A DNA stretch of 64,000 nucleotides, from positions 56,420,001 through 56,484,000 of the forward strand of contig OZ024746.1 in the NCBI GenBank assembly GCA_964016885.1, read 5' to 3'. Positions within the stretch are counted from its first letter, which is position 1; the number at the start of each line of letters is the position of its first letter. The position numbers and the translations under genes were made by a program. Source of the stretch: Eledone cirrhosa (taxonomy: Eukaryota). Positions 19,611 to 57,539 of this stretch are shown in pieces. Under the pieces are notes generated by a model. It had not been told where the DNA came from. It did not search any database and was given only the letters and a program-made list of their open reading frames with translations.

Positions 19611-19614
19611 ACAA

Positions 19615-19998: not shown

Positions 19999-20040
19999 CA
20001 TACATACAAACATTCATACACACAAACATACATACATTGC

Positions 20041-20430: not shown

Positions 20431-20459
20431 AAAACAAACATACATACACTCATGGTGGT

Positions 20460-22721: not shown

Positions 22722-22779
<58 letters not shown>
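22722..22779. repeat. (TAA)n microsatellite
   Basis: Direct reading. Confidence 0.95.
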
Positions 22780-23719: not shown

Positions 23720-26700
23720 ACAAGGGCCAAGTGGAATGGCGGATCCACAGATGGCTATGTAACCATACATTCGCCAATCCTCGATAAGAGTGTTTAAATA
23801 TCGAACATAAACAGTTCGAATAACGGTGAAATGGAGACTAGAACGTCATGTGACAGACTCTCACCCAACAGGTGCCCCCTGGCTCAGCAGCAGGAACCTG
23901 ACTGTCAACCAAATACTGCTGATGTTGGAGGAAGGAGAAGAAGGAAAGGGGCCAGAACCAACTGGACGAAAGAATTGAATAGAACTGTTATGCAATGTTA
24001 CCTGAAAAGTAACCCCAAGGAGAGGGGCTACAGGAGACGGATGCATAACATCTGGAACGAGATTGGTTTATTTAAATTAGATGAACAAAAATTGGCCGGG
24101 CAGGCTCGGGTAATAAGAACTAATGGGTGGATAAGCGAGCTGGAACTGGAGGAACTAAGCAGAGAGAATGGCTTGGAGATGGCGGGTGTAGTATGCCAGA
24201 CAAGCGAGCCAGTGGGAAATGAAGGTGAAGAGGTCCTGAGAACGGAGGAACCACCCGAAGCAGACAATGATCTGAATACTGAGATAAATAATACCTGGAA
24301 CAGAGATACGGCCACTGAGGAGATGAATGCTGACAGGCTAGGACAAGATTCGGTTGATATCCTAAATTTAGTGGTAGATGAATAGAACAATGATAGTGGG
24401 AGACCTATGAACCTAAGATTTGTAGACAGGAAAAAGTTAAAAGAAACAACAGCTAAGGTAAACCAAGTCATCCCATACCTTGAGGCGAGGAGCCTTCACC
24501 AGTGCAACAATATCCTCAAAGCAACAGCAAATACGGTGAGGAAACTACTTGGTATAAAAGCGAGAGGAAACAACAGACAAGAAAGAGCAGAGCCGTGGTG
24601 GAAGAAGCGACTGAGTGGGCAAATCGGGGAAATGAGAAATGACATAGGAAAGCTTGAGTCACTACTGAATGGGACACTAAAAAACATAGGCACTAAAAAT
24701 AGACTGGAAATAAAATACAAAACTAGGAGGAAAAAGCTAAATATTATTATAGAGGAACTGAAGCAACGCATTGTAGCAAAGAGTGCAAAAATCAGGCGAT
24801 ACGAGAACAGAGTCAGTCAGTATAAACAGAACCGCATGTTCGACAACAACCAGAAGATGCTGTTTAGACAGCTTGAGGGGAAAGAAAGAGGCTACGACTT
24901 GATCCCTGGGGCGGAGCAAACTAAAACATTCTGGAGAGGAATATGGGAGCAGGATGTTAGACATAATGTCCAGGCAGGGTGGATTGAGACAGTACAGAGG
25001 GAGATCGGTGAGCAGGCACAACAACAAACTGATTTGAGTATCACAGTTGAAACCCATAAGGGGCAGGCCAAAAAACTAACCAACTGGAAATCACCAGGCC
25101 CAGATGGTGTGCAGGGGTATTGGATTAAACATTTAACATCCCTCCACCCGAAGCTGACGGCCATGTTCAATGACTGCTTGGTGTCGGGTGAGGTGCCAGA
25201 GTGGTTGACAAAAGGTACCACAGTTCTGATAATGAAAGACCGAATCATGGGTAATGATGTTACCAACTATAGACCTATCACATGTCTGTCCGTAATGTGG
25301 AAACTGTTGACGAGCATTGTGTCTGAGGAAATCTACCATCACCTCCACACAAACAACTTGTTACCGGACGAACAGAAAGGATGCCGAAAGAAGTCACGTG
25401 GTACAAAGGACCAGTTACTTATTGATAAGATGGTAATGGGGAATTGCAGGAGGAGACACACTGATCTTGCCATGGTATGGATAGACTACGGAAAGGCATT
25501 TGACATGGTGCCTCATTCTTGGATCACCAAAAGCCTGGAGATCTTCAGGGTGGCAGATAACATCAGACAGTTGCTAGGCAGGAGTATGGGGTCCTGGGAG
25601 ACAGAGTTGACATCAACTGGAGTATCCTTGGGAAGCGTGAAGATCAAGAGAGGTATCTTCCAGGGAGATAGCCTGTCCCCTCTGTTGTTTGTCCTTGCCC
25701 TAATGCCCTTGACCATTATGCTGCGAAAAGTGAGAGCAGGATACAAGTTGGGAAGGGGAGAGCTTACCATCAATCACCTCCTCTTCATGGACGATCTTAA
25801 GCTCTTCGGGAAAAGTGAGAAGTAGTTGGATGTGCTTGTTGACACTGTCCGTATTTTCAGCAGTGATATATGTATGCAGTTTGGTATTGGTAAATGTGGA
25901 GTCATTGTGATGAGGAGGGGTAGGTTGAGCAGAAGTAACGGGATCCAGATACCAACAGGTGAGATGATAAAGGAAATTGACTCTGAGGAAGGATACAAGT
26001 ATTTGGGCGTCCTGGAGGCTGATGGCATAAAGAACAAAAAAATGAAGGAATTGTTAAGAACTGAATACATTCGGAGAGTAAGGAGTGTATTGAAGTCACA
26101 TCAGACCAGCAGAAATGCCATAAACGCAGTAAATTCCCGAGCTGTGTCTATTATTAGGTACAGTGCGGGAATTCTGAGATGGAATGTTGCTGAACAAAAA
26201 GAAATGGATAGGAAGACTAGGAAGCTAATGACTATCTACAACATGTTCCACAAGAGGAGTGACGTCGATAGACTCTACCTAAGGAGATCTGAGGTTGGAA
26301 GAGGTCTTATCAGCATAGAGGACTGTGTTCAGATGGAGAAAAACAACCTATACAAATACGTGACCTATAGTAAGGAGCCAATGCTCAGAACTGTACTGAA
26401 GGAGGGGACAGTAGGCCAGGGGATGTCCAAGGAGGAAATAACATCAAGGAGGAAGAGCAGCCTTAAGGGAAAATCTCTTCATAGTACCTTCTTTGAGAAA
26501 ACTGAATTTAGAGATCCACAGACATGGAACTGGTTGAGAAGAGGAGACCTCAAAAAGGCTACAGAAGGAATGCTAATGGCTGCGCAGGAGCAGGCCCTCA
26601 AAACGAAGTGGTTGAAGCACCATATTTACAAGGAGGAGGCTAGCCCACTGTGCAGGATATGTGGAGAGAGAGAGGAGACTGTGGCTCACATTGTGTCCGA

Positions 26701-27300
26701 GTGTAAACACCTAGCCCAGACCCACTATAAGGGCTGGAGACATGATGTGATGGGCAGGGTGATCCACTGGCACCTGTGCAAAGTAAACAATTTACCACAT
26801 TCTGAGAAATGGTATGAGCATAGGCCAGAGGCGGCGATGGAGAACAATCAGGTGAAGGTGCTGTGGGATTTTAGGATACAGACGGACAAAAAACTGGAAC
26901 ACAATAGACCTGACCTGGTGGTTGTTGACAAAGAAAAAAGATCGTGTCTGATTGTGGATGTGGCCTGCCCTTTCGACACGAGAGTGCAAGAGAAGGAGAG
27001 GGAGAAAATTAACCGATACCAGGACCTAAAGTGGGAGGTGAAAAGGATTTGGAACTGCCATGAGGTCATTGTGATCCCGATTGTCATAGGCGCACTGGGG
27101 ACTATCTCCAAAAGTTTCCAGGGATGGTTAAAGAAAATCGGCCCCGTCACGCTTTTTGGAACGCTGCAAAAGGCATGCTTGCTTGGAACAGCAAGAACCC
27201 TCCGATACGTCCTGAATATCTGAGGCTGCAGGTAGTGGCTTGATATTCATTCCAACGGACTTTCCAGTTAACCAACATCAATGACTGAGATTCAAGGAAT
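23720..27300 (+). mobile_element. R4/Dong-clade non-LTR retrotransposon, family 1 copy 1 (most complete; 5' boundary uncertain)
   Basis: Single RT-RLE reading frame, short 3' UTR, (TAA)n tail at 27318-27347. Confidence 0.92.
23831..27223 (+). pseudogene. 1130-codon Myb-like/RT/CCHC/RLE ORF with two in-frame TAG stops
   Basis: ORFs 23831-24385, 24407-25825 and 25826-27223 share one frame. Motifs WKSPGPDG, NYRPITC, GIFQGDSLSP, FMDD, CRIC-x8-H-x4-C, RHD, RPDL, DVACP. Confidence 0.93.
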
Positions 27301-27317
27301 AACAACAATACTACTAC

Positions 27318-27350
<33 letters not shown>

Positions 27351-27613
27351 TTTCTTTATTAACCACAAGGGTTTACATAAAGTAGACATTAAGGACAGTG
27401 CAGGACAATGCAGGACGGTACAAATGGGCATTTCTGCGTGTAAAAAAAAAAAAAAAACAGAGGATGTAACAAAAATAACAATGAAAATAACAATGAAAAA
27501 TTCCCCAATAGGGGGGAGACTTCGGAGGGACATTTGTGGAGAAAGCCCAGTAAAAAGCCACAATGACCCTGACCACCAAGGCAAGTGCCCTCTCCCAGTT
27601 TTCCACCTTTAGT

Positions 27614-30600
27614 TTACAGATATATACTCAGAGTCGGCCCATTCACTCGGGCCATTCTTGCTTCTCTCACCCATCTTTCAACAAAATGCTGGGAAGAGAG
27701 CACTTCCTTCTCTACTCTGATTTTCCTTTTCAAATGAAATTTGAAAAAGTCAATCAGAGCATCACCGAAGAGGTAAGTGCTCGTCTTCAGCCCTTTCAAA
27801 CGTGTCCACCATACTATCTCTTTCGCCATGGCCACCAGACAGATAAAAACTGCCTGCCCTTCCCGGCTAAAGGAGGAGGGCGGGGCAATCCTCACGATAG
27901 ACTCAGATGATAGCTGGATCCGTCCTAAACGCGACAGCAGGTGTTCGACATAAACCCACAAGTCAGCAATTTTCGGACACTGGACGAGTGCGTGCAGGAC
28001 GGTTTCGTCGCCCTGCGCGCATCTCGGACATGCCCGGCTGACGGCACCTCCATGCCTGTAGAGTTTATCCCGAACTGGCAAGGCTCCTCGGTAGCACTGC
28101 CAGGCCAGAGATTTCTGGAAGTTGTCCATAGGCCCTGGCCCGAAAGTTCTTCCGAAGAGATTGGCTAGTTGATTTTCGTCGACGCCTAGAGTTTCCCCAA
28201 GTACGTCGTCGCTCTTCCCCTCCACTAATCCTCTATAGAACGCCGAGGTGGAGTTTCCACCGATCACATTGCCCGATTGGTCGAGGGCTGTGAGCGCCTG
28301 AAGACATTCCAGTCTCCAGGCGCTCCCTCTCGGTCTTCGCTTGACCCAGGACTGCAGCTCCGTCAAGGAAACGAGCTGGGGAAACACGCGTCTAGCAAAC
28401 GGCGACCACACCTGATCACCGTCGAGGAAGAGGTGGAGATGTCGTAGCCTGAGCGCGTGCCTGCGCATCATCAGCCACGGCATGCCCAGCCCTCCACGTA
28501 GCGGGTGTTGACAACAGATGGACCGCCTGACCATCGGAGCGCGTCCCTTCCACAAAAAGCGAAAGAGCAAACGCTCCAGCACAGTCAGGCGAGGCTTAGG
28601 ACAAGGTACGACGGTCAGGCGGTAGCAGATGACGGACGCGATGTACGCGTTAGCCACCTCCGCTCGACCTTTCAGGGATAGCTTCCTCTCGGCCCATTTC
28701 TGGGTGAGAGAAGCCACCCTGCTCGTCACCTCGTCCCAGTTTTTGTCCGTCTGGAGGTCCGGACCGAACCAGACCCCTAGCAATTTAACCGGTCCGTCCG
28801 TCCAGCGTCCGACGACGCTGTTGGACGGCATGGACCTGCCTCTCCAGGTGCCGAGCTGCAGGCCCACTGACTTTTCCTGGTTGATCATTGCTCCTGTCAC
28901 CGCTTCGTATTCTCTTAGTGTAGTGCCGATCGCCTCGATGTGTTTGGCGTTCGACACCACTACGGTGACATCGTCCGCATATGCTGATACGGATCTTCCG
29001 CATCCTAGTTCGCGCGGGACCCCCTCAACGTCTCCATTTTGTGCAGTAATGGCTCGAGAGTCAATACGTACAAGAGGGACGAGAGGGGACATCCTTGGCG
29101 GACCGAGCGCATGATGTTGAACGGTTCCGAAAGGTGACCGTTCACTCTCACCACAGAGCAGATGTCGCTGTGCATGGCAGCGATCCAGCCTCTGAAGACG
29201 GGCCCAAAGCCAGCCGCCCTCAGGACTGCCGCTAGGTAACGATGGTCGACCCTATCGAAAGCTTTCGACTGATCTAAATTGATCAAGGACCCACCCGTGC
29301 CAGGTTCCCTAGCTACCCTCTCTACGATGTATCGCATGAGGTGGAGGTTGTCGTGGTTGGATCTGTCGGGAATGGCGCATGTCTGCGCCTCTCCCACCAG
29401 ACAATCAACGACAAGCGCCAACCTCTTTGCTAGCACCTTGGCCAAAATCTTAAATTCTGTGTTTAGCAGAGTTATGGGCCGGAAATTTTGTATGTTATCC
29501 CCCTTGTTCGGATCCTTTCTCAGCAGTGCCACCGCTCCTCGGCTCACAGAACTGGGAATTCTCCCGTTCTGTTGCCAGTTGCAGTAGACGTCCGCCAAGA
29601 GGCCTCCGAACAAGTCTGGCATCTGTACGTAAAGTTCATAGGGCAGGCCATCCAAACCAGGCGATTTACCCCTTGTGCAGCCAGTCATTGCCTCCCTTAC
29701 TTCAGCGGCTGTTATCGGCTTTTCGCAACACTTCGCCTCAGTGGCCGAGAGCCGCGGCAGTCCGTCGAGGTAGACACTAAAGTCCATCCCTCTACCCGGC
29801 CCACCGCTGCCCCCGAACAGCTGAGCGAAGTGTCGCTGAAAAGCTTCACACATTTGCCCGGGATCGAGTAGCATGCGCCCGTCGTGGTCCACCAAAGACC
29901 GGATCGTGGCTTTGTTGCCACGACGCGCCTCCGCCACTCGGGCCCATTGAACGGCTTTCGTCCCCTCGTGTCTGAGAGCACGCACCCTTGCTCTGACAAC
30001 GCAGCCTTCGTGCTTTGCATTGAAGAATTGGTCAAGGGCCAATTTCGCCGCAAGCACGTCGGTCGCAATGCCTTTGCTAAGCGCCTCGTCTAATTTTCTA
30101 ACTAGTTCTCCCTCTGCTCTATTTTTCTCTATTGCTAAAGTCTTACTAAACCTAATGGACTCTATTCTAATTGCTCTTTTCAGAGCAAACCACCACTTGT
30201 TGTTGACGATGGCCCCCGTCAACGCCCGCTTAACTAGTTCGCTAATCCGGTCTCTGTAGGCCTTGCGCGCTGGTAAGGACGCGTTTATCTTCCAGTAGCC
30301 GGGTCCTCGTCTATGAAGCCTATCTAAGTCAAGCACACAGATCACGAATTTGTGGTCCGTGTAGCTGACTATCTTGAATTGTGGACAGCCTATGCTAGAC
30401 CTATCTATTTCCCTACAAAATACTCTATCTAGATATGATCTGGATGACCCTATGCGGTTCCAAGTCCACATTGGCACATTTGGGAAATCCAATCGGTACC
30501 TGTCAGACAGTTCAAAACGCCTGAGCAGGTTGGTGAGGCTCTTGCACCCTCCACCCCTATCCACTAATCCCACACAGTCCCAGCGTGCATCTAAGATCCC

Positions 30601-31029
30601 GTTCCAGTCGCCCACTAACACTAAAGAGCGGGACGTTCCAAGAAAGGTCTCCAGACGCCGGAAGAAATCAGGCCGCCCTGCTCCTGTCGGGGCATAGACG
30701 GCCACTAGCCTGAAAGCTTGCCCGTCTCCGCTGGTCACGTCCAGCACCACCAGCTTACCCTCTGGGTCCAGGAAGATGGCCCGTATGGCGAGATCCAAAC
30801 CTCTCCGAAAAAGCACAGCAACTCCTCCACCCGATCCAGGACGGCTGGGAGATGCGTACACATCGTAGCCGCCGAAGATCGGTGCGAAGGCCCGTGCTTC
30901 GGAGATTCTGGTCTCGCTGATGGCCACTACATCTATGTTTAGTGACCTGAGGTCGTTGAGCAGGTGACCCTGCTTCCATGACGACCCCAAGCCACGCGCA
31001 TTTATGCTGCCTATTCTGAGTGAGGTCAT
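27614..31029 (-). pseudogene. ORF2: APE endonuclease, RT, C-terminal CCHC; one frameshift near 29020
   Basis: SINARGL, ISETR, VYAP, GDWN, SYLDR, TDHK; SPGLDG, FRPITLLN, KAFDRVDH, RQGCPLS, YADD; CPRC-x8-H-x4-C. Confidence 0.93.
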
Positions 31030-31064
31030 GTTTAAAATAGAGTGGAAAAGATGGGAACGACCAC

Positions 31065-33159
31065 TTACCGTACTTTTGGTAGAGGAGGGATGGTTTTTAC
31101 ATCCCTTTTCACTTGATCGTCTGGTGAAGGGACCGTTGAATCGTCCCTTCGGCTGGTCGTCGGCTCTTTTAAGAGAATGTCTGAATATACTCTTCGATTG
31201 ATGGTTCCTCCTAGGTCCCTGAAATCACCAACTGCGTTGGGGAATTTCGTTTTAATGTTTGTGTATTGTTTCTGTGCTATTTTTAGCAGTCTTATGTTAG
31301 TTGGCGTTTTGATTGGTGCTGGTATTATGTAGTCCTGTTGTGAAATGTCTGTGTGTTCAATTATGTATGTCATTAGTTTCTTGTTGTGTGTGTTTATTGC
31401 CGTGCATTTGTTTTTCTGGGGGTGGGGTGTGGTTCTGCTATTTTCTTGTCGTTGTTGCTGGGTGTGTGTGTTTTGTTGTTTTGTTTGCGATGTTGGTGCT
31501 TATGGTGGTGGTGTTGAAGGTGTTGTTGGCGGTGTGGTTGTCGTCGGTGGTGATGGTGGTGCTGGTGTGGGTGGTGATGGTGTTGGTGGTGTTGCTGCTG
31601 TGGGTCTCTTTGCAGTAGACTTTACCCTTTTCTCATTTCTTTCCTCCCTTTTCAAAGGTGACGATGCGCTGCTTCTGCGTTTGTGCCTTCTTGCGACCTT
31701 TTGCCATCCCTCTCCCACCTCACACTCATGTCTGATTCTGTGAGGTCGGGGAGAGGTACCAGCTACACTCTTTCACTTGTTGTTGTTGGTGATGTTTGCA
31801 CCGGTGTCTCTGTTGCAGCTGCATTTAGTATTGCTGTTGTTGTTGTTAATGTTTCCACTGCTGCTGCTGTTTTTGATTTCCGTGGAGTGGGTATGGGTGC
31901 CACGGGCCTATCGTTCCTGGTTGCCGTTTGTCCTGTTGCTGGTAGCCGTGGAGCCGGATTCGGAAGGAGGGGGGTTTTCTCCTTTCTCAGGGTCTTCTCG
32001 TTGCAGAAGGCCTGAGGTGAGTCTTCGATCCACAGCGAAAGCATTTCGGGCGTTTACCCTCAACACTTATGGGCAGTTGAGTGCCGTTATCGAAGTCTAT
32101 CACATCCGGGATAGCTTCGATGCACTCCTGGTTGGTTTGGATTAGCATCTCAATGGAGGAGCCGACCCAATCTTCTCTTACTTTTTTCTGTACTTGCAGT
32201 ACATTTGTTTTGTCCTCGATTCCGACGAGGACAGACGCGGCCAGCCAAGAAGGGGTCATTCCGGGGGGGACGTGGGTCAGTTTGACCCTCACAATTTTTT
32301 GCCCGCAGTAGGAGGGCACCAACACCATTTCCTCGCTCCTTAGGGTCACTACTGATTGGGCCTTTGCCTCCTGGGGTGTGGCAAAAAGTACGTCTACAGT
32401 GGCATATTTTTTGCCTCGGGTGATGTGCGTTTTCCGCTGCCACACAGACCCCAAGGCTTTTTGTATTTGGGCCTCTGTGGCTCTTTCCACCCTACGGGAT
32501 TTTGTACTTACTGTACGGTACGTGACCGTACAGTGCTCTTGGGTTTCGAAAAATTTTTCCGCTGCTTTGCAGATTGCTCGGTGTCCGTTCTTTGTCACCA
32601 TCTTCTTCGCTTCCTCTAATTCCTCATTTGTTATGAGGATTGTTTCCAAGTTTTTCGCAATACCTGCAAATGAGATTGGTTTTTCTCTGCTGTTGTTGTT
32701 GTCGTCAGAGCTGCTGGTACTTTTGTTGTTGCTGCAGGTACTACGACTACTGCCTCCGCCGCTGTTGCTGTGGTTGTTGTTGGTGTTGCTGCTGCTAATG
32801 CTGTTGTTGTTTATGCTGCTGGTGATGCTGTTGCGGCTGCTACTGTTGTTTTCATTGTCACTGTTGCTGTTGTTATTACGGCTGCTACTGCTATTATTCC
32901 TGACGTCAGACGAATGAACTGGGTTTTCGTATTTCCCGCACACCTGTTTCGTCGCTGTCGTCGTCGTCGTGGAGAAACCTTGCACGCTTTGCACGAGACT
33001 TTTCTTTTCTTTCGTCACTTGCGAAAGAGAAGGGAGGGAGAGAGACACATTTAAAGAAGGGAGGGAGAGAGACAATCTTCTCTCTGCTGTAGTGATGATT
33101 GAGAAAGAAGAAGACGGAATGAGTGGGAGTGACGTATGAAATTTCTTTTTCGTAGCCAT
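31065..33159 (-). pseudogene. ORF1 (gag-like, zinc knuckle) with two 1-nt frameshifts
   Basis: Pieces match the intact 692-aa ORF1 at 45499-47577; single-base losses near 32011 and 31727. Confidence 0.88.
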
Positions 33160-33397
33160 GTTGTTTTTTTGTTTAAAATGAAATTTTGGGTACAAAACCC
33201 CAATAACTGGTTATTTAACCCCGAAGGGCCAAATAACGGACAGAAAGACCCCTCTCACGAGGAGGAGGGTGTCTTTATCAACAATTTGGTTCAAGTTTTA
33301 AACAGTTTACAATTGTTTTAACGGTTAAAAATTACTATACCTTACAGAGCCGAGCCTCCGTCAACCATGGCATTCAATAATAATAATAATAATAATA

Positions 33398-35925
33398 CAG
33401 GGACCTGGCTGTCAACCAAATACTGCTGGTGTCGGAGGAAGAAGAAGGAAAGGGACCAGAACCAACTGGACGAAAGAATTGGAATAGAACTGTTACGCAA
33501 TGTTACCTGAAGTATAACCCCAGGGAGAAAGGCTATAGGAAAAGGATGCATAACATCTGGAACGAGATTGGTCCATTTAAATTAGATGAACAAAAACTGG
33601 CCGAGCAGGCTCGGGTAATAAGAACTAATGGGTGGATAAGCGAGCTGGAACTGGAGGAACTGAGCAGAGAGATTAGCTTGGAGATGGAGCGTGGAGTATG
33701 CCAGGCAAACGAGCCAGTGGGAAATGAAGGTGAAGAGGTCGAGAGAACGGAGGAACCACCCGAAACAGACAATGATCTGAATACTGAGATAAATAATACC
33801 TGGAACAGAGATACGGCCACTGAGGAGATGAATGCTGACGGGCTAGGACAAGATTTGGTAGATATCCTAAACTTAGATAGTGGGAGAGCTATGAACCTAA
33901 GATTTGTAGACAGGAAAAAGTTAAAAGATACAACAGCTAAGGTAAACCAAGTCATCCCATACCTTGAGGCGAGAAGATTCACCAGTGCAACAATATCCTC
34001 AAAGCAACAGCAAATACGGTGACGAAACAACTTGGTATAAAAGCGAGAGGAAACAACAGACAAGAAAGAGCAGAGCGTTGGTGGAAGAAACGACTGAGTC
34101 GTCAAATCAGGGGAATGAGAAATGACATTGGAAAGCTTGAGTCCCTACTGAATGGGACACTAAAAAACATAAAAACTAAAAATAGACTGGAAATAAAGTA
34201 CACAACTAGGAGGAAAAAGCTAAATATGATCATAGAGGAACTGAAGCAACGCATTGTAGCAAAGAGTGCAAAAATCAGGCGATACGAGAACAGAGTCAGC
34301 CAGTATAGACAGAACCGCATGTTCGACAACAACCAGAAGATGCGTTTTGGACAGCTTGATGGGAAAGAAAGAGGCAACGACTTGATCCCTGAGGGGGAAC
34401 AAACTAAAATATTCTGGAGAGGAATATGGGAGCAGGATGTTAAACATAATGACCAGGCAGTGTGGATTGAGACAGTACAGAAGAAGATCAGTGAAGAGGC
34501 ACACCAACAAACTGATTTGAGTATCACAGTTGAAACTCTTAAGGGGCAGGCCAAAGAACTAACCAACTGGAAATCACCTGGCCCAGATGGTGTGCAGGGG
34601 TAATGGATTAAAAACATAACATCCCACCACCCGAAACTGACAACCATGTTCAATGACTGCTTGATGTCAGGTGAGGTACCAGAGTGGTTGACAAAAGGTA
34701 CCACAGTTCTGATAATGAAAGACCGAATCAAGGGTAATGATGTTACCAACTGTAGACCTATCACATGTCTGTCCGTAATGTGGAAACTGTTGACAAGCAT
34801 TATGTCTGAGAAAATCTACCATCACCTCCACACAAACAACTTGTTACCGGACGAACAGAAAGGATGCCGAAAGAAGTCACGTGGTACAAAGGACCAGTTA
34901 CTTATTGATAAGATGGTAATGAGGAATTGCAGGAGGAGACACACTGGTCTTGCCATGGGATGGAAAGACTACAAAAAGGCATTTGACATGGTGCCTCATT
35001 CTTGGATCACCAAAAGCCTTGAGATCTTCAAGGTGGCAGATAACATCAGACAGTTGTGGGCAAAAGTATAAAGTCCTGGAAAACAGAGTTAACATCAACT
35101 GGAGAATCCTTGGGAAGCGTGAAGATCAAGAGAGGTATCTTCCAGGGAAATAGTCTGTCCCCTCTGTTGTTTGTCCTTGCCCTGATGCTCCTGACCAGTG
35201 TACTGCGAGAAGTGAGAGCAGGATACAGGTTGGGAAAGGGAGGGCTTACCATCAATCACCTCCTCTTCATGGACGATTTTAAGCTCTTCGGGAAGAGTGA
35301 GTAGGAGTTGGATGTGCTTGTTGACACTGTCCCTATTTTCAGCTATGATATATGTATGCAATTTGGTATTAGTAAGTGTGGAGTCATTGTGATGAGGAGG
35401 GGTAAGTTGAGCAGAAGTAACGGAATCCAGATACCAACAGGTGAGATTATAAAGGAAATTGACTCTGAGGAAGGATACAAGTATTTGGGCGTTCTGGAGG
35501 CTGATGACATCAAGAACAAAAAAATGAAGGGATAAGAACTGAATACATTCGGAGTGTAAGGAGCGTATTGAAGTCACATCTGAACAGCAGAAATGCCATA
35601 AGCGCAGTAAATTCCGCAGCTGTGTCTATTATTAGGTACAGTGCGGGAATTCTGAGATGGAATGTTGCTGAACAAAAAGAAATGGATAGGAAGACTAGGA
35701 AGCTATTGACTATCTACAATATGTTCCACAAGAGGAGTGATGTCGATCGACTCTACGTAGGGAGATCTGAAGGTGGAAGAGGTCTTATCAGCATAGAGGA
35801 CTGTGTTCAGATGGAGAAAAACAACCTACACAAATACGTGACTGATAGTAAGGAGCCAATGCTCAGAACTGTACTGAAGGAGGGGACAATAGACCAGGGG
35901 ATGTCCAAGGAGGAAATAACATCAA
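33398..35925 (+). mobile_element. R4/Dong family 1 copy 2, truncated at both ends and degenerate
   Basis: Colinear with about 23890-26447; multiple stops and frameshifts; ends at 'gaaataacatca' running into (TAA)n. Confidence 0.92.
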
Positions 35926-36193
35926 TAATAATAATAATAATGATTTCATTTATTGGCCACAAGGGCCGACATATAGGGGACAACACAATAGACAGGGACA
36001 GTGGGGGTTTACATAGAGATCGAGTAAGTATAAATAACAAAAAACAAAATAACAATAAAAATACAACAATGAAAGTTCCCCAATAAGAGGGATCACCACC
36101 CAGGGTTGACTCAAGCACCCCACCAGTCCTGAGCCACCCGAGGCTCCTAGGGCACCCGGGAACGGCACCCCTCTCCTTCTCGAATTCACCAGC

Positions 36194-39625: not shown

Positions 39626-39654
39626 GCTGGCAGGATGAATGGGAGAGGAAAGGT

Positions 39655-45000: not shown

Positions 45001-45463
45001 ATCCCACACAGTCCCAGCGTGCATCTAAGATCCCGTTCCAGTCGCTCACTAACACTAAAGAGCGGGACGTTCCAAGAAAGGTCTCCAGACGCCGGAAGAA
45101 ATCAGGCCGCCCTGCTCCTGTCGGGGCATAGACGGCCACTAGCCTGAAAGCTTGCCCGTCTCCGCTGGTCACGTCCAGCACCAACAGCTTACCCTCTGGG
45201 TCCAGGGAGATGGCCCGTATGGCGAGATCCAAACCTCTCCGAAAAAGCACAGCAACTCCTCCACCCGATCCAGGACGGCTGGGAGATGCGTACACATCGT
45301 AGCCGCCGAAGATCGGTGCGAAGGCCCGTGCTTCGGAGATTCTGGTCTCGCTGATGGCCACTACATCTATGTTTAGTGACCTGAGGTCGTTGAGCAGGTG
45401 ACCCTGCTTCCATGACGACCCCAAGCCACGCGCATTTATGCTGCCTATTCTGAGTGAGGTCAT
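42056..45463 (-). pseudogene. ORF2 family A, multiply disrupted
   Basis: Fragments 44597-45463, 43673-44488, 42916-43401 and 42056-42994; the YADD region is mutated. Confidence 0.9.
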
Positions 45464-45498
45464 GTTTAAAATAGAGTGGAAAAGATGGGAACGACCAC

Positions 45499-47577: not shown

Positions 47578-47791
47578 GTTGTTTTTTGTTTAAAATGAAT
47601 ATTGGGTACAAAACCCCAATAACTGGTTATTTAGCCCCGAAGGGCCAAATAACGGACAGAAAGACCCCTCTCACGAGGAGGAGGGTGTCTTTATCAACAA
47701 TTTGGTTCAAGTTTTAAACAATTTACAATTGTTTTAACGGTTAAAAATTACTATACCTTACAGAGCCGAGCCTCCGTCAACCATGGCATTC

Positions 47792-47821
<30 letters not shown>

Positions 47822-47822
<1 letters not shown>

Positions 47823-50800
47823 TTTTCTTTATTAACCACAAGGGTTTACATAAAGTAGACATTAAGGACAGTACAGGACAATACAGGACGGTACAAATGG
47901 GCATTTCTGCGTGTAAAAAAAACAGAGGATGAAATAAATTAACAAAGAAAAATTCCCCAACAGGGGGGAGACTTCCGAGGGACATTTGTGGAGAAAGCCC
48001 ATTAAAAGACCACAGTGGCCCTGACCACCGGGGCAAGTGCCCTCTCCCAGTTTTCCACCTTTAATTTACAGACACATACTCAGAGAAGGCCCATTCATTC
48101 GGGCCATACTTGCTTCTCTCACCCATCTTTCAACAAAATGCTGGGAAGAGAACACTTCCCTCTCTACCCTGATTTTCCTTTTTCAGATAAAATTTGAAAA
48201 AGTTTATCAGGGCATCACCGAGGAGGTAAGTGCTCGTCTCCACCCCTTTCAAACGTGTCCACCATACTATCTCTTTCGCCATGGCCACCAGACAGATAAA
48301 AACTGCCTGCCCTTCCCGGCTAAAGGAAGAGGGCGGGGCAATCCTCACGATGGACTCAGCTGATAGCCGGATCCGTCCTACACGTGACAGCAGGTGTTCG
48401 ACATAAACCCACAAGTCAGCAATGCTCGGACACTGGACGAGTGCGTGCAGGACGGTTTCGTCGCCCTGTGCGCATCTCGGACATGCCCGGCTGACGAAAG
48501 TCCTTCCGAAGAGATTGGCTAGTTGATTTTCGTCGACGCCTAGAGTTTCTCCAAGTACGTCGTCGCTCTTCCCCTCCACTAATCCCCTATAGAACGCCAA
48601 GGTGGAGTTTCCACCAATCACATTGCCCGATTGGTCGAGGGCTGTGAGCGCCTGAAGACATTCCAGTCTCCAAGCGCTCCCTCTCGGTCTTCGCTTGACC
48701 CAGGACTGCAGCTCCGTCAAGGAGACGAGCTGGGGAAAAACGTCTCTAGCAAACGGCGACCACACCTGATCACCGTCGAGGAGGAGGTGGAGATGTCGTA
48801 GCCTGAGCGCGTGTCTGCGCATCATCAGTCACGGCATGCCCAGCCCTCCACGTAGCGGGTGTTGACAGCAGATGGACCGCCTGACCATCGGAGCGCGTCC
48901 CTTCCACAAGAAGCGAAAGAGCAAACGCTCCAACGCAGTCAGGCGGGGCTTAGGACAAGGTACGACGGTCAGGCGGTAGTAGATGACGGACGCGATGTAC
49001 GCGTTAGCCACCTCCGCTCGACCTTTCAGGGATAGCTTCCTCTCGGCCCATTTCTGGGTGAGAGAAGCCACCCTGCTCGTCACCTCGTCCCAGTTTTTGT
49101 CCGTCTGGAGGTCTGGACCAAACAGACCCTAGCAATTTAACCGGTCCGTCCGTCCAGCGCCCGACGACGCTGTTGGACGGCATGGACCTGCCTCTCCAGG
49201 TGCCGAGCTGCAGGCCCACTGACTTTTCCTGGTTGATCATTGGTCCTGTCACCGCTTCGTATTCTGTTAGTGTAGTGCCGAACGCCTCGATGTGTTTGGC
49301 GTTCGACACCACTACGGTGACATCGTCGGCATATGATGACACGGATCTTCCGCATCCTAGTTCGCGCGGGACCCCCCTCAACGTCTCCAGTTTGTGCAGT
49401 AATGGCTCGAGAGTCAATACGTACAATAGGGACGAGAGGGGACATCCTTGGCGGACCGAGCGCATGATATTGAACGGTTCCGAAAGGTGACCGTTCACTC
49501 TCACTACAGAGCAGATGTCGCTGTGCATGGCAGCGATCCAGCCTCTGAAGACGGGCCCAAAGCCAGCCGACCTCAGGACTTTCGCTAGGTAACGATGGTC
49601 GACCCTATCGAAGGCTTTCGACTGATCTAAATTGATCAAAGACCCACCCGTGCCAGGTTCCCTAGCTACCCTCTATACGATGTATCGCATGAGGTGGAGG
49701 TTGTCGTGAATGAATCTGTCGGGAATGGCGCATGTCTGTGCCTCTCCCACCAGACCACCAACGACAAGCGCCAACGTCTTTGCTAGCACCTTGGCCAAAA
49801 TCTTGAACTCTGTGTTTAGCAGAGTTATGGGCCTAAAATTATCTATGTTATCCCCCTTGTTCGGATCCTTTCTCAGCAGCGCCACCGCTCCTCGGCTCAC
49901 AGAGCTGGGAATTCTCCCGTTCTGTTGCCAGTTGCAGTAGACGTCCGCCAAGAGGCTTCCGTACAAGTTTGGCATTTGTACGTAAAGTTCATAGGGCAGA
50001 CCATCCAAACCAGGCGATTTACCCCTTGTGCAACTAGTCATTGCATCCCGTACTTCAGCGGTTGTATCGGCTTTTCGCAACACTCCGCCTCAGTGGCCGA
50101 AAGCCGCGGCAGTCCGTCGAGGTAGACACTAAAGTCCATCCCTCTACCCGGCCCGCCACTGCCCCCGAACAGTTAAGCGAAGTGTCGCTGAAAAGCTTCA
50201 CACATTTGCCCGGGATCGAGTAGCATGCGCCCGTCGTGGTCCACCAAAGACCTGATCGTGGCTTTGTTGCCACGACGCGCCTCCGCCACTCGGGCCCATT
50301 GAACGGCTTTCGTCCCCTCGTGTCTGAGAGCACGCACCCTAGCTCTGACAAAGCAGAGTTCGTGCTTTGCATTGAAGAATTGGTCAAGGGCCAATTTCGC
50401 CGCAAGTACGTCGGTCGCGATGCCTTTGCTAAGCGCCTCATCTAATTTTTTAACTAGTTCTCCCTCTGCTCTATTTTTCTCTATTGCTAAAGCCTTACGA
50501 AACCTAATCGATTCTATTCTAATTGCTCTTTTCAGAGCAAACCACCACTTGTTGTTGACGATGGCCCCCGTCAACGCCCGCTTAACTAGTTCGCTAATCC
50601 GGTCTCTGTAGGCCTTGCGCGCTGGTAAGGACGCGTTTAGCTTCCAGTAGCCGGGTCCTCGTCTATGAAGCCTATCTAAGTCAAGCACACAGATCATGAA
50701 TTTGTGGTCCGTGTAGCTGACTATCTTGAATTGTGGACAGCCTATGCTAGACCTATCTATTTCCCTACAAAATACTCTATCTAGATATGATCTGGATGAC

Positions 50801-52535
50801 CCTATGCGATTTGTCCAAGTCCACATTGGTACATTCGGGAAATCCATTCGGTACCTGTCAGACAGTTTAAAACGTCTGAGCAGGTTGGTGAGACTCTTGC
50901 ACCCTCCTTCCCTATCCACTAATCCCACACAATCCCAGCGTGCATCTAAGATCCCGTTCCAGTCGCCCACTAACACTAAAGTGCGGGGAGTGGAAAATCC
51001 TCCACAGGCGTTAGTTTTGGTTTTGGCGTGGTGGATGGTGTAGGCGCTGGTGCTAGTTCTGAAGCGTTGGGTGGTGGTGGTGTTGGTTTTGCTGGTGGTG
51101 GTGGTGGTGTTGGTTTTGCTACTGTTGCTGGGGTTGTTGCTGTTATAGTTGCTTCTGTTGTTGCTGCTACAGTTGCTGCTGCCATCTCTGCTACTGGTGG
51201 TGTTGATGGTTGTGTCATTGGGGTGGGTAGGAGAGGTGGCCTCAACCTTTTAGCCTGAGGGCAGAAGGCCCTTAGGTGGGTTCCTTCACCACAAACGACA
51301 CACCTAGGTCTTCTGCCCTCGACAATTACCGTGAGGTGGCTGCCGTCAGTGAGGTCTATTACCTCTGGGATCTCCTCAATGTTTTTTTGGTTCGCTTGGA
51401 TCAGGAGCTCCATCCCTGATCCGGACCAGTTCTCCTGCTTTTCTTTTGCTATTGCTATTATTTGTGTTGGCTTCGATGCCGGCGAGGTCGGCCGCTATTA
51501 GCCAGGGATTTTCGATGGCCGGTGGAACGTGGGTCACCCTGATCTTTACGAGTCTCTGACCACAATAGCTTGGGACGAGTGTGAAGTCGTCACTTCTTAA
51601 TGGGACCATGGAGTGTTCTCTAGCCTCCTCTGGTGTTTCAAAGAACACGTCCACGGTTCCATACTTTTGCCCACGTCTGATGTGGGTTTTTCTTGCCCAG
51701 ACATGTCCCAAAGCATTTTGGATTTGGGACTCGGATGCCCGTTCCACTCGGCGAGATTTTACATTTATTGTTCGATACGACACGGTGCATAGGTGCCGAT
51801 GCTCCATTTTATTAGGTGTGGGGGGGATGAGGCTGACCCTGTACATCTTTCTTTACCATTGTTTGGCATTTTCTAAATCCTCCTGATTTACCGTAAATGC
51901 TTCGAACAGTTTTGCTACTCTGGCGAAACTGAGGGTGGTTTTTATAATGTCATTGTTGTTGTTGTTGCTATCGTTATTTGTGTTAATATTAATTTTAGTT
52001 TCAGCTGTGGTGGTGGTGACGTCAGTCGTCTTTGGTGGGGAAGAGTCCATTTTGCTTCATTTCATTTCGACATCACGAGTTAATTTATTTTTTTCTTCTT
52101 TTGTTTCTGTTGTCGCGGTGGTGGTGGTGGTGGAGGCTTTAACACCTGCAGTAATTGGTAATGGCGGGAAATGAATGTCTGCCTGAGACAAATTTAAAAT
52201 ATTGCTACTGCTTATATTTTTTTTAGTGTTGGCAAACGTAGTAACATTTACAATGCTGGTGTCGGTGTGAGGTGTTAATTTGTGGTATAGGCTTTCAGCT
52301 GCTTGGTGCAGAGGTGAATTAGCCATATTTCTTTCAAAGAAATTTTTTGATGATAATAAAAGTTTAAATTTTGGGCACAAGGCCCCAATCTTTTTGGGTG
52401 TCCTTTTCAGAAAACAATGTATGTGCGCTTATATGTGGTTAACAATAAAATTTTCCACAAATGGCAATTTTTAACAAACGGAAATAACAAACCTTTGCGG
52501 AGCTCACGATGATACGATTTACTACGTAGGTCGCC
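47822..52535 (-). mobile_element. Chimeric Tx1 copy: family C 5' UTR and ORF1 joined at about 50980 to a family A-like ORF2 and 3' UTR
   Basis: 50980-52380 encodes a third ORF1 type (CVVCGEGTHLRAFC). 47822-50980 closely matches family A starting at LVGDWN in the APE domain, with frameshifts and a deletion near 48495. Confidence 0.88.
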
Positions 52536-52625
<90 letters not shown>

Positions 52626-52654
52626 AAGAAGAAGAAGAAGATGAAGAAGAAGAA
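52536..52654. repeat. (TAA)n-(GAA)n compound microsatellite at an element junction
   Basis: Direct reading. Confidence 0.95.
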
Positions 52655-55600
52655 TAGAACTGATATGCAATGTTACCTGAAGAGTAACCCCAATGAGAAA
52701 GGCTATAGGAAACGGATGCATAACATCTGGAACGAGATTGGTCTATTTAAATTAGATGAACAAAAATTGGCCTCGCAGGCTCGGGTAATAAGAACTAATG
52801 GGTGGATAAGTGAGCTGGAACTGGAGGAACTGAGACAGAGAGATTAGCTTGGAAATGGAGAGTTGAGTATGCCAGGCAAACGAGCCAGTGGGAAATGAAG
52901 GTGAAGAGGTTGAGAGAACGGAGGAACTATCCGAAGCAGACATTGATATGAATGCTGAAATAAATAATACCTGGAACAAAGATACGGCCATTGACGAGAT
53001 TTGGTTGATATGCTAAACTTAGTGGTAGATGAATTGAACAATGATAGCGGGAAACCTATGGACCTAAATTTTGTAGACAGGAAAAAGTTAAAAGAAACAA
53101 CAGCTAAGGTAAACAAAGTCATCCCATACCTTGAGGCGAGGAGCCTTCACCAGTGCAACAATATCCTCAAAGCAACAGCAAATGCGGTGAGGAGATTACT
53201 TGGCATAAAAGTGAGAGGAAACAACAAACAAGAAAGAGCAAAACCTTGGTGGAAGAAACGAGTGAATGGTCAAATCAGGGAAATGAGAAATGACATTGGA
53301 AAGCTTGAGTCGATACTGAATGGGACACTAAAAAAGATAGACACTAAAAATAGACTGGAAATAAAGTACAAAACTAGGAGGAAAAAGCAAACTATTATCA
53401 TAGAGGAACTGAAGCAACGCATTGTAGCGAAGAATGCAAAAATTAGGCGATACGAGAGAATAGTCAGTCAGTATAGACAGAACCGCATGTTCGACAATAA
53501 CCAGAAGATGCTATTTGGACAGCTCGAAGGGAAAGAAAGAGGCAACGACTTGATTCATGAGGCGGAACAAGCTAAGACATTCTGGAGTGGAATATGGGAG
53601 CAGGATGTTCAATATAATGACTAGGCAGTGTGGATTGAGACAGTACAAAAGGAGATTAGTGAACAGGCAGACCGACAAACTGATTTGAGTATCACAGTTG
53701 AAACTCTTAAGGGGCAGGCCAAAAAACTAACCAACTGGAAATCACCAGGCCCAGATGGTGTGCAAGTGTATTGGATTAAAACTATAACATCCCTCCACCC
53801 GAAACTGACAACCATGTTCAATGACTGCTTGATGTCAGGTGAGGTACCAGAGTGGTTGACAAAAGGTACCACAGTTCTGATAATGAAAGACAGAATCAAG
53901 GGTAATGATGTTACCAACTATAGACCTATCACATGTCTGTCCGTAATGTGGAAACTGTTGACAAGCATTATGTCCGAGGAAATAACCCATCACCTCCACA
54001 CAAACAACTTGTTACCGGACGAACAGAAAGGATGCCGAAAGAAGTCCCGTGGTACAAAGGACCAGTTACTTATTGATAAGATGATAATGAGTAAGTGCAA
54101 GAGGAGACACACTGGTCTTGCCATGGGATGGATAGACTACAAAAAGGCATTTGACATGGTGCCTCATTCTTGGATCACCAAAAGACTAGAGATCTACAAG
54201 GTGGCAGATAACATCAGACAGTTGTTGGGCAAAAGTATGAAGTCCTGGAAAACAGAGTTAACATCAGCTGGAGAATCCTTGGGAGGCGTGAAGATCAAGA
54301 GAGGTATCTTTCAGGGAGATAGTCTGTCCCCTCTGTTGTTTGTCTTTGCCCTAATGACCCTGACCAGTGTACTGTGAAAAGTGAGAGCAGGATACAGGTT
54401 GGGAAAGGGAGAGCTTACCATCAATCACCTCCTCTTCATGGACGATCTTAAGCTCTTCGGGAAGCGTGAGAAGGAGTTGGATATACTTGTTGACACTGTC
54501 CGTATTTTCAGCAATGATATATATATGCAATTTGGTATTAGTATGTGTGGAGTCCTTTGAATGAAGACGGGTAAATTGAGCAGAAGCTACGGAATCCAGG
54601 TACCAACAGGTGAGATGATAAAGGAAATTGACACTGAAGAAGGATACAAGTATTTGGGTGTTCTGGAGGCTGATTACATCAAGAGCAAAAAAATGAAGGA
54701 ATTGATAAGATCTGAATACATTCGGAGAGTAAGGAGCATATTAAAGTCACATATGAACAGTAGGAATGACATAAGTGCAGTAAATTCCCGAGCGGTGTCT
54801 ATTATTAGGTACAGTGCGGGAATTCTGAGATGGAATGTTGCTGAACAAGAAGAAATGGATAGGAAGACTAGGAAGCTATTGACTATCTACAACATGTTCC
54901 ACAAGAGGAGTGATGTCGATAGACTCTACTTAAGGAGATCTGAAGATGGAAGAGGTCTTATTAGCATAGAGGACTGTGTTCAGATGGAGAAAAACAACAT
55001 ACACAAATACTTGACTGATAGTAAGGAGCCAATGCGCAGAACTGTACTGAAGGAGGGGACGATAGACCAGCGGATTTCCAAGGAGGAAATAACATCAAGG
55101 AGAAAGAGCAGCCTTAAGGGAAAATCCCTTCATAGTACCTTCTTTGAGAAAAACTGAATTCAGAGATCCACAGACATGGAACTGGTTGAAAAGAGGAGAC
55201 CTTAAAAAGGCTACAGAAGGAATGTTAATGGCTGCGCAAGAGCAGGCCCTCAAAACGAAGTGGTTGAAACACCATATTTACAAGGAGGAGGCTAGCCCAC
55301 AGAGGAGAGAGAGAGGAGATTGTGGCTCACATTGTATCCGAGTGTAAACACCTAGCCCAGACTCACTATAAAGGCTGGAGACATGATGTGATGGGCAGGG
55401 TGATCCACTGGCACCTATGCAAAGTAAAACATTTACCACATTCTGAGAAGTGGTATGAGCATAAGCCAGAGTCGGTGATAGAAAACGATCAGGTGAAGGT
55501 GCTGTGGGATTTAAGGATACAGATGGACAAGAAACTGGAACACAATAGACCTGACCTGGTGGTTGTGGACAAAGAAAAAAGATCGTGCCTGATTGTGGAT

Positions 55601-55938
55601 GTGGCCTGCCCATTCGTCACGAGAGTGCAAGAGAAGGAGAGGGAGAAAATTAACCGATACCAGGACTTAAAGTGGGAGGTAAAAAGGATTTGGAACTGCC
55701 ATGAAGTCAAAGAGGTGCCGATTGTCATAGGCGCATTAGGTACTATCTCAAAAGGTTTCTAGGGATGGTTAAAGAAAATTGGCCCCTTCACGCTTTTTGG
55801 AACGCTTCAAAAGGCATGCTTGCTGGGAACAGCAAGAACCCTCCGATACGTCCAGAATATCTGAGGCTGCAGGTAGTGGCTTGATATTCATTTCAACAAA
55901 CTTTCCAGTTAACTAACATCAATGACTGAGACTCAAAG
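52650..55938 (+). mobile_element. R4/Dong family 1 copy 3, 5' truncated and degenerate
   Basis: Colinear with about 23975-27298; complete 3' UTR followed by (TAA)n and (AAC)n. Confidence 0.92.
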
Positions 55939-57539
55939 AATAATAATAATAATAATAACAACATCAACAACAATATCAACAGCAATAACAGCAACAACAT
56001 CAACAACAACAACAATAATAATAATAACACCAACGACGACGACGACGACAACAACAACAACAACAATAACAATTATAATTATATGGAATGTAAAACACCA
56101 GCTATTTACTATCAATCTAAACAAGCCGATTTATGGGGATCAATTCTTGTCGGAGATCAACAGCGATTGATGAGAAATTCAGAAATAATCTTATATATTT
56201 GATCACAATACTTATTGCTTCAGTAATTGAAATAAATTGTCCGATATATTAGCTTGCATTTTATAAAACTAATGCAGAGACGTCATCACAAGTTTGACTT
56301 ACGATATATCAAAATACTTCATTCTATGAAAACCACTCAGTTTATTGTAAAAATATCCATTAGGAATATTGCATATATCATCAATGTATTGTATAAATAA
56401 ATACCTCCTCTAGCTATGATACTTTCGCCTTTCAACGTCGTCTTAATACTTGTGTAGTTTATAAAAGTAACAATAAGCAACACAAATAACTCTTCCCGCT
56501 CATACGTCTTCAATGACTTTGATCTGTTCACGTTGTACACATGTTGTTGCCTTACTATATTTTTCGGAGTTTTAATAATGAAAGAAACAAAATAAAGCAA
56601 TTTAGACCCAGTAAATATATCAATGTATTGTTATTGGGCTAGCGAACTCGTGCCGTTATTAACGACGTCAGTGGCTTCAAACTTATTAAGGTGATGGAGC
56701 CTATGTCTGGTATGCCATAAGACGTACCAATTGGAAAATTGGAGCTTGAATAAGTTAATGGTCTTCATAAACAAACAATAGACATCAGAGTTCATGGCAA
56801 TTCGAAATGTTTAAAGTTGAGATAGATATTGTGACAATGATTTCAAAGATATAATTAAATAGATGATCAGCATGACCGGATATGTAGAAATATATTAGAA
56901 ATATGGGAGAAATATCTATTTTGAAGGAGAAATGTAGTTTGTAGTGTAGTAAATAACAGAGATATGGAATGCATTGAATGACTGTTTGCGTGTCTAAGTG
57001 ACACTCACATATATACATGCACGCAAACACATGTATACATATATGCATTCATACATATATATAAATGCATAAATTCATACATACATGCATACGTACATAT
57101 ATACATAAAATATATACATGCATACTTACATACATACATATATACATACATACATTGCATAGTCAGGTAACCGCAGATAGAGTCGTAGGGGCGCCGCATT
57201 GCCATGCGGTGTTTCTTGAGCATGTTAAACATGGCGGGGCCAATTTCTCTCCAGCCTGCGTACACAAGATTTCTTCCAGCGAAAGATAGAAAAAGAGGGA
57301 GGAGAAATACGAATGAGATATAGAGGAAGAATCAACCACAGTAAAATACTGATACGTACTATCAGACATTCTAACGATTCTGCCAATTTGCCGCCCATAC
57401 GTACATATATCATACATACATACTCTCGAAAAAAGACATATAAACACCAGTATTAAACAGGAAATTCTGCTTGCTATCAACGGAATTTGATTTTGATACA
57501 ATATGTCTCAAAACTTCTATATTCTGGCAAATTAACATT

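Follow-up and report, generated by a model that had tools for sequence, protein, structure and literature searches.

Two unrelated LINE clades share a (TAA)n target in opposite orientations in the genome of Eledone cirrhosa

Background

How do retrotransposons of two unrelated clades come to stand side by side, in opposite orientations, within a single microsatellite? The question is raised by a 64,000-nucleotide stretch of Eledone cirrhosa DNA (hereafter the window), which contains a 33-kb stack of seven LINE copies with (TAA)n between them: three copies are Dong-like, on the plus strand, and four are Tx1-like, on the minus strand. An element with an apurinic-type endonuclease (APE) and one with a restriction-like endonuclease (RLE) also meet in one multicopy target in the case of R1 and R2 in 28S rDNA; these two occupy separate sites in a gene, in the same orientation and with no self-renewing repeat.

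Several components of the arrangement are already known: the use of TAA by Dong, that of other microsatellites by Tx1, and the sharing of a repeat from opposite strands by TRAS and SART. Dong elements (R4 clade; Bombyx Dong, DongAg, DongBg) have a single ORF with a reverse transcriptase (RT) and a C-terminal restriction-like nuclease, and are described as targeting TAA (PMC3812793); Bombyx Dong is reported to self-cleave at the TAA joint (PMC3774820). Kibi, Koshi and the crocodilian Tx1 elements have two ORFs, with APE and RT, and insert into short repeats in one orientation, also in tandem. The passages on Tx1 microsatellite targets in PMC4494074 name (TC)n, (TTC)n and (TTCC)n/(TTTC)n, and do not name (TTA)n. 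TRAS and SART are two families that share one tandem repeat in opposite orientations and form mixed arrays (PMC10088271). Surveys of octopus repeats report Dong-R4 and L1-Tx1 as active, including recent Dong-R4 activity in Octopus vulgaris, and give no targets in the passages concerned (PMC13282606, PMC9115989).

Architecture of the array

The order Dong(+), Tx1A(-), Dong(+), Tx1B(-), Tx1A(-), Tx1C(-), Dong(+), proposed in the initial annotation, was recovered when the sequence was read again, and all seven TAA tracts lie where they had been placed. A (TAA)18 tract that had been missed (22724..22777) constitutes the left remnant of the target, which moves the start of the array 1 kb upstream, from 23720 to 22724. 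Dong-like copy 1 follows (22778..27300, plus strand), full length and 98.6% identical to a dispersed copy, with a 5' UTR at 22778-23830 and a single ORF whose reading frame, from the ATG at 23831 to 27223, is interrupted by in-frame stops at 24383 and 25823. The segment 22778-23719 was considered as a separate element and rejected, since in other copies it is contiguous with the ORF and corresponds to the Dong 5' UTR.

The Dong tail (27301..27348), with AAC/ACT variants at 27301-27318, runs into an (AAT)10 that at the same time flanks the 3' end of Tx1A copy 1 (27349..33375, minus strand), a full-length, frameshifted copy 99.0% identical to dispersed copies. The next tract, (AAT)7 at 33376..33396, is flanked by two 5' ends and is thus the tail of neither element. 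Beyond it lies Dong-like copy 2 (33397..35923, plus), which is missing both ends, namely the 5' UTR and the ~790 bases with which copy 1 ends, and which is 95.4% identical to the nearest fetched copy. An (AAT)6 (35924..35941) separates it from the full-length Tx1B (35942..41775, minus; 99.2% to a dispersed copy), and an (AAT)11 with one AGT unit at 41788 (41776..41808) precedes Tx1A copy 2 (41809..47791, minus), full length, with ORF1 open and ORF2 broken, 96.8% identical to copy 1 and 98.4% to dispersed copies. After an (AAT)10 (47792..47821) comes Tx1C (47822..52535, minus), carrying two internal deletions of ~1050 and 97 bp, its own 5' UTR and ORF1, and an A-type ORF2 and 3' end. The spacer at 52536..52654, again between two 5' ends, consists of (AAT)20 and then ~20 AAG units (52597-52654). 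It leads to Dong-like copy 3 (52644..55938, plus), 5' truncated and the most diverged, at 94.9% to the nearest fetched copy, and the right target remnant is an (AAT)6 followed by degenerate (AAC)n (55939..56072). The statement that only (TAA)n lies between copies needs correction for three spacers, in which AAC/ACT, AGT and AAG units occur.

The two kinds of element

In the window, RT domains are found in both kinds of element and APE domains in the minus-strand kind only. The Dong-like ORF gives a Pfam RT match, lacks an APE and carries a CCHC and an RPD...D..C motif in its C-terminus. An intact relative elsewhere in the genome (L171) has a 1130-aa ORF with FMDD, CRICG...H...C and RPD...VDVACPFD...EK, the last of which we take to be a PD-(D/E)xK-type restriction-like nuclease motif. 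R2 proteins are the best relatives of known structure. Assignment to Dong/R4 is by domain layout and target, as the 165 homologues bear no family names; for homologues of the two kinds of element, the one useful name is that of an Argonauta hians protein. The present elements are unlike known Dong in their ~1050-base 5' UTR and their very high copy number, with Dong-like DNA making up 4.5% of 400 kb of genome background. An HDV-like ribozyme at the Dong-like 5' end was detected neither by Rfam nor by our own descriptor, used without a positive control; such a ribozyme is not known to occur throughout the clade.

The Tx1-like elements encode an ORF1, with a CX2CX4HX4C zinc knuckle in all three types, and an ORF2 composed of an N-terminal APE, an RT and a C-terminal zinc motif (PF03372, PF00078, PF13966). 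Tx1A ends in a 3' hairpin AACC-CTTGT-GGTT followed by AATAAA, and Tx1B in a hairpin GGCC-CTTGT-GGCC; their ORF2 products share 75% identity. The label Tx1C/A was right in setting this copy apart; as a chimera specific to the locus it was rejected, for Tx1C is a genome-wide subfamily with its own 5' UTR and ORF1 joined to an A-type ORF2 in 20 of 20 fetched loci.

Tx1-like ORF2 scores 474 and 388 bits against two elements named by target only, since they run into U2 snRNA (L249 and L242), vs 181 bits against human L1, and in a tree that contained no L1 its clade and theirs are sisters (support 0.95). U2 snRNA is described as the target of Keno (PMC4494074). More distant relatives on metagenome contigs (23-42% identity) have a TAA run of four units in 1 of 80 loci, away from the element end, a count that says little about the wider extent of the target because such contigs mostly stop at element ends. 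ORF2 is open in 31 of 40 Tx1A stretches, which were the best matches to the window and hence biased towards young copies; this is recent activity.

The target site in the genome

A DNA search with the Tx1A 5' end gave seven loci and was replaced by genome-wide pattern counts. ATTATT precedes 2268 of 2314 Tx1A heads (98.0%; 1225 heads on one strand vs 1089 on the other) and 315 of 316 Tx1B heads (99.7%), whereas in 400 kb of background genome, sampled at even spacing, it occurs at 0.11% of positions. Both values exceed the share proposed by Kojima for a target-specific Tx1 family, namely more than 20% of flanks of one kind (PMC4494074). ATAAT occurs within two bases before 455 of 700 Dong heads, a figure lowered by the strict pattern and by additional bases, AAG or A, in the 5' joints of Dong.

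A census of 139 stretches (1.59 Mb outside the window; matches below 80% or 100 bp dropped), most of them chosen by likeness to window copies, gave the same picture at copy level: Tx1 5' ends adjoin ATT in 130 of 143 cases, no tract in 13 and AAT in none; Dong 5' ends, most of them truncated, adjoin AAT in 70 of 81, no tract in 11 and ATT in none. The head counts and the census together bear out the proposal of a shared (TAA)n target present on both sides of the insertions.

The repeats could also be carried on the element RNA, in which case Tx1 would arrive at unspecific sites together with its ATT tracts, and Dong would land in these later. It would fit this explanation that most Tx1 copies are full length and flanked by a tract at either end, and that only 11 of 24 truncated Tx1 5' ends adjoin a tract. 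Against it, 67 of 72 full copies have no duplication outside the tracts (the other five being at imperfect tracts or poly-T), copies L071, L091 and L103 end on GTT and not ATT, the truncated L071 has an 18-bp duplication made of imperfect repeat, and element flanks continue into host GTT, AGT and CTT repeats. We consider RNA-borne tracts very unlikely; the flanking repeats are the target and not cargo.

Pure repeats hide the length of the target duplication. The shorter flank of 19 Tx1B copies has its mode at 15-18 bp (range 6-24), and four duplications of 34-42 bp adjoin tandem copies and may be products of recombination.

Origin of the array

Siblings within the window are 90.5-96.8% alike vs 94.9-99.2% to dispersed copies. 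In a comparison of 53 copies the two Tx1A copies have no private variant in common, and each of the three Dong copies falls on a branch of its own. As the nearest relatives of the window copies are dispersed ones rather than their siblings, the array probably grew by separate insertions.

The alternative that units of element plus repeat were multiplied, for the most part by tandem duplication or unequal crossing-over, does hold for a pure array of ten Tx1B copies (C1:423.36-423.42 Mb), where spacers are a constant 15 bp, two neighbours are identical and variants are private to adjacent copies; it would also account for the excess of Tx1-Tx1 neighbours, 28 of 69 vs 2 of 30 background tracts. 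In the window it is contradicted by the identity values, by the lack of a common private variant among siblings and by their differing ends, and there we regard it as even less likely than carriage on RNA. Less likely again is an assembly artefact, with repeats collapsed or mis-joined at microsatellites: every joint does lie in short repeats, but every copy can be told apart by changes of its own, joints of these types are seen again at dozens of other loci on many contigs, and the genome-wide head counts are independent of this locus.

The array is thus very probably a TAA microsatellite that received seven copies of two unrelated clades, in opposite orientations as predicted nicking of opposite strands would produce, and likely by seven separate insertions.

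Orientation and neighbours

In the census, 42 of 43 Dong-Tx1 neighbours are in opposite orientation, the single exception lying where the microsatellite flips, so that the strict opposition first claimed holds relative to the local strand of the microsatellite. Dong-Dong neighbours are on the same strand in 29 of 29 cases and Tx1-Tx1 neighbours in 52 of 54; two inverted Tx1B fragments adjoin Tx1A (L094, L102).

If the two clades cooperated or depended on each other, mixed arrays would be a selected unit. Such arrays are common, and a short motif, GACGGAGG ... GCTCYYGTAAG, is found in the heads of both Dong and Tx1A. However, Dong stands beside 23 of 69 young Tx1 copies (two sides each), which is not above the 9 of 30 background TAA tracts of at least 4 units, or 7 of 14 of at least 6 units, in this small background. 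Mixing needs no cooperation, since enough TAA tracts already lie beside a Dong to account for it, and cooperation is the least credible of the explanations considered. As for the locus being a landing pad, the target is indeed present on both sides of the copies, but the locus is not special and Dong-Tx1 mixing is no commoner than random use of tracts would give; the shared-target, opposite-strand pattern is genome-wide, at thousands of places.

A model of target use

Genome-wide, each on its own sense strand, Tx1-like copies lie at ATT^ATT and Dong-like copies in (AAT)n. By the logic of target-primed reverse transcription, the Tx1 APE would nick the A-rich strand at 5'-AAT^AAT-3', and also at AAC^AAC, and the Dong restriction-like nuclease would nick the T-rich strand; orientation would be fixed by which strand primes. 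A staggered second cut would duplicate repeat units, ~15 bp for Tx1B according to the shorter flanks of those 19 copies and the constant (ATT)5 spacer of the one, partly duplicated, array. With repeat units duplicated, a tract open to further insertion would remain on each side of the new copy, and elements of both clades could later land between those already there. The 3' CTTGT hairpin may be what the Tx1 RT recognises on the RNA, and an abundant SINE with a CTTGT hairpin could use the same Tx1 enzyme and site.

Relation to known systems

No new class of element is involved, and the array itself is a by-product. The Dong/Tx1 pair works like TRAS/SART and is not a member of it: those are both R1-clade APE elements in telomeric (TTAGG)n, whereas here an RLE and an APE element use dispersed TAA. 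The present Tx1-like elements differ from Kibi, Koshi and the crocodilian Tx1, as described, in their target and in having an RLE element in the same repeat. We found no description of a (TTA)n-specific Tx1 or of a mixed Dong-Tx1 array in the open literature; Repbase Reports, Kojima and Fujiwara 2004, subscription papers or the supplement of PMC4494074 may hold one.

These observations extend the list of Tx1 targets to (TTA)n and present a case of the two classes of LINE nuclease using a single three-base repeat, each probably from a different strand; both enzymes can be assayed on one oligonucleotide. They also explain where octopus Dong-R4 and L1-Tx1 land. The young copies number in the thousands and are often intact, which makes the choice of strand, the length of the duplication and the renewal of the target directly measurable. 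A wider, tentative proposal, to which we give somewhat less than even chances, is that octopods harbour a strand-partitioned TAA community, composed of an undescribed (TTA)n-specific Tx1 lineage, the SINE it mobilises and several Dong families, in which each nuclease class uses one strand and which makes, through duplication of the target, most of the long TAA tracts that it needs. If this is true, the Tx1 APE would represent a new nuclease, cutting the A-rich strand at T^A, and would supply a main octopus SINE with its missing partner.

A SINE with the Tx1 hairpin and site

The abundant SINE, with about one tail per 11 kb, resembles Tx1 in its 3' hairpin and in its ATTATT site. A comparable case is that of SINEU and Tx1-Mar in crocodilians, a SINE with the target preference of a Tx1 that likely moved it (PMC4494074); there the SINE has a U1/U2 head and the target is Mariner, in contrast to the ATTATT site and common 3' CTTGT hairpin here. 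Tx1 is the likely driver of the octopus SINE, judging from hairpin and site, with other LINE families also possible as partner. Among 37 SINE tails in the 400 kb background, 24 are followed by ATTATT and 23 have duplications of 8-21 bp (one of 29), the SINE site being looser than that of the LINE. In the hairpin (seven sequences), changes on both sides are found in three of four pairs.

Structure of the array

Seven LINE copies lie between positions 22778 and 55938 of the window (G000:C6:56420001-56484000) with a TAA tract between each pair, and self-comparison, ORF lists and junction read-outs matched the element order proposed in the initial annotation, namely Dong(+), Tx1A(-), Dong(+), Tx1B(-), Tx1A(-), Tx1C/A(-), Dong(+). 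The array had been placed from 23720; the shared TAA array itself stands, but it opens at 22724 with a (TAA)18 tract, and the ~1050 bases after this tract are the Dong 5' UTR, which is contiguous with the ORF in other copies and whose head (5' end) has 700 exact matches genome-wide. A TAA tract is indeed present at every joint, although one spacer, described as pure (TAA)n, also contains about 20 AAG units. The spacers at 33376 and 52536 are flanked by two 5' ends and are therefore the tails of neither element. Dong copy 2 lacks both ends; it stops at AATAACATC (35915-35941), an internal sequence that resembles its own tail, and internal priming or a microhomology deletion could explain the lost 3' end.

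The two kinds of elements

Pfam searches of the window found RT in both kinds and APE in the minus-strand kind only; RT identity between them is 26% over ~270 residues. In the intact plus-strand copy a single ORF encodes RT together with CCHC and restriction-like nuclease motifs, and the nearest solved structures to this protein are R2 proteins. The label Dong is given provisionally to this kind by domain order, target and motifs that we take to be Dong-like. Ribozymes were sought in the Dong copies, with no Rfam match and none by our own descriptor, run without a positive control.

The Tx1-like ORF2 scored 474 and 388 bits against metagenome elements running into U2 snRNA and 181 bits, far below, against human L1. 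In a tree of 60 RT sequences, built without named references and without L1, the APE elements of the window form a clade sister to these U2-linked elements (support 0.95). Tx1-like metagenome elements (Keno-like) adjoin U2 snRNA in loci L242, L249, L231 and L236, and another Tx1-like element (L244) adjoins 5S rRNA; Keno, a Tx1 family, targets U2 (PMC4494074). A Tx1B relative at 67% identity carries the name Argonauta hians, which points to an octopod as the probable host. The copy initially read as a Tx1C/A mixture does have a C head on an A body, but as a subfamily: in 20/20 fetched loci its own 5' UTR and ORF1 are joined to an A-type ORF2 (95% protein identity to A-type). ORFs are intact in 31/40 Tx1A stretches and 3/20 Dong stretches. 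Over window 33000-48200, contigs of run X4, which is labelled as another organism, cover Tx1A and Tx1B at at least 97%, with nearly no depth on Dong copy 2; a relative thus seems to have very similar Tx1 families and to lack the Dong of copy 2.

Further RT ORFs in Dong orientation adjoin TAA tracts in L084 (7751-9787), L092 (7777-9588), L137 (8218-9999) and L171 (7819-9999), one with a Dong-like C-terminus; a recurrent 3' end, ...GATAAATGCAACTGT(AAT)n, hints at a second family that resembles Dong. Four window heads (22778-22830, 33330-33375, 41730-41775 and 52490-52535) all begin with G, followed by a GCTC-like motif and then, ~30-50 bases in, by a splice-donor-like GTAAG/GTGAG; GACGGAGG is common to Dong and Tx1A heads. 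The heads may contain a common internal promoter.

Target and orientation

The claimed shared TAA target is borne out genome-wide (3.0 Gb): ATTATT lies directly 5' of 2268/2314 exact Tx1A heads and 315/316 Tx1B heads, against a background of 0.11% of positions across 400 kb sampled at even spacing, and ATAAT occurs within two bases before 455/700 Dong heads. The Dong pattern is a strict one; several other heads have a TAA run and then extra A or AAG bases. For Tx1C, 16/18 sampled copies have at least 6 perfect tract bases at the head.

Orientation was tabulated across 139 stretches totalling 1.59 Mb, including 40 background stretches, and matches below 80% identity or 100 bp were dropped. Tx1 5' ends (n=143) follow ATT in 130 cases, no tract in 13 and AAT in 0; Dong 5' ends (n=81) follow AAT in 70, no tract in 11 and ATT in 0, so that neither kind has a wrong-strand 5' end. 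Across a tract, Dong-Dong neighbours run in the same direction in 29/29 cases and Tx1-Tx1 neighbours in 52/54, both exceptions being internal fragments. Orientation had been called strictly opposite for the two kinds, and this holds for 42/43 Dong-Tx1 pairs but not for a single same-direction pair (L146), located on a tract that switches from AAT to ATT. In L096, L097, L123, L124 and L147, Tx1 copies lie in the same host repeat, which consists of a T-run, an ATT tract, a second T-run and TGCAATGGCCATACTCG, in that order; this multicopy element provides a target.

The repeats might instead be cargo on the element RNA, in which case duplication would be expected outside the tracts. Such duplication is absent in 67/72 full copies (shuffled pairs, 1.6), and the remaining 5/72 have imperfect tracts or poly-T. 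Three copies end straight on GTT, so the ATT tail is not templated; one truncated copy has an 18-bp duplication consisting of imperfect repeat. The missing outer duplications, the GTT ends and the spacers between 5' ends argue against cargo.

Beside these observed sites, orientations, flanks and intact ORFs, a mechanism may be proposed on the basis of target-primed reverse transcription, which is well established. The first nick would fall on the strand complementary to the sense strand of the element. For Tx1 this would be the A-rich strand, cut at AAT^AAT; for Dong it would be the T-rich one. The T^A step of the proposed Tx1 nick resembles the L1 cut. A staggered second cut would duplicate several units (~15 bp for Tx1B) and leave two tracts.

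Growth of the array

Window copies are 94.9-99.2% identical to dispersed copies and 90.5-96.8% to their siblings, each being nearer to a dispersed copy. Over their last 1500 bases, the two Tx1A copies have no private variant in common within a set of 53 copies; among 19 Dong copies, the three from the window are placed on three different branches. This pattern agrees with independent insertions at different times, of which those of the two shorter Dong copies are probably the oldest. Elsewhere (L208-L214, G000:C1:423.36-423.42 Mb), ten full-length Tx1B copies stand in tandem with identical (ATT)5 spacers, a likeness gradient, two identical neighbours and variants private to adjacent copies; this pure array looks like the product of unequal exchange, a second route of growth. 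A Dong neighbour is found at 23/69 young Tx1 copies, while 9/30 background tracts of at least 4 units already adjoin a Dong; against this small background, Dong-Tx1 mixing is not enriched.

A SINE with a similar 3' end

The Tx1 3' end forms a hairpin with loop CTTGT, whose A and B stems differ in compensating fashion. The same loop closes an abundant SINE of ~200 bp, ending in GGC-CTTGT-GCC and AGTAGAAAC and often in tandem (window 1716-1895 and 1921-2102, plus strand; 63064-63282, minus strand). The text available for octopus SINEs gives no partner (PMC4758252). Among 37 SINE tails in the 400 kb background, ATTATT follows in 24/37, and 23/37 have duplications of 8-21 bp (one of 29). The SINE is likely mobilised by the Tx1 lineage, one candidate among possible partners.

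Relation to known systems

All ingredients of the Dong/Tx1 system have precedents. R1 and R2 both use 28S. Dong is described on TAA (PMC3812793, PMC3774820); Tx1 targets include TC, TTC, TTCC/TTTC, U2 and transposons (PMC4494074); TRAS and SART insert in TTAGG in opposite orientations (PMC10088271); and most target-specific LINEs fall into three groups (PMC4640811). Octopus surveys report active Dong-R4 and L1-Tx1, their available text giving no targets (PMC13282606, PMC9115989). In the searchable literature, which leaves Repbase and subscription papers outside its scope, neither a TAA-specific Tx1 nor a mixed Dong/Tx1 array was found; the (TTA)n-specific Tx1 lineage, the use of its repeat by an RLE element that enters from the opposite strand, and the likely SINE partner appear to be undescribed there. 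The observation of the initial annotation is confirmed, and its interpretation is supported with limits.

Other observations

A minus-strand RT element at 5386-8106, with a zinc motif and one stop, shows 67% identity to a fragment beyond the right end of the array (57611-58445). An inverted repeat pair (3738-5028 and 19598-20910) matches at 95% in a segment of 454 bp and at 71% in one of 760 bp. In the background locus L148, a tandem repeat makes up open frames 770-2005 codons long, all on a single strand.
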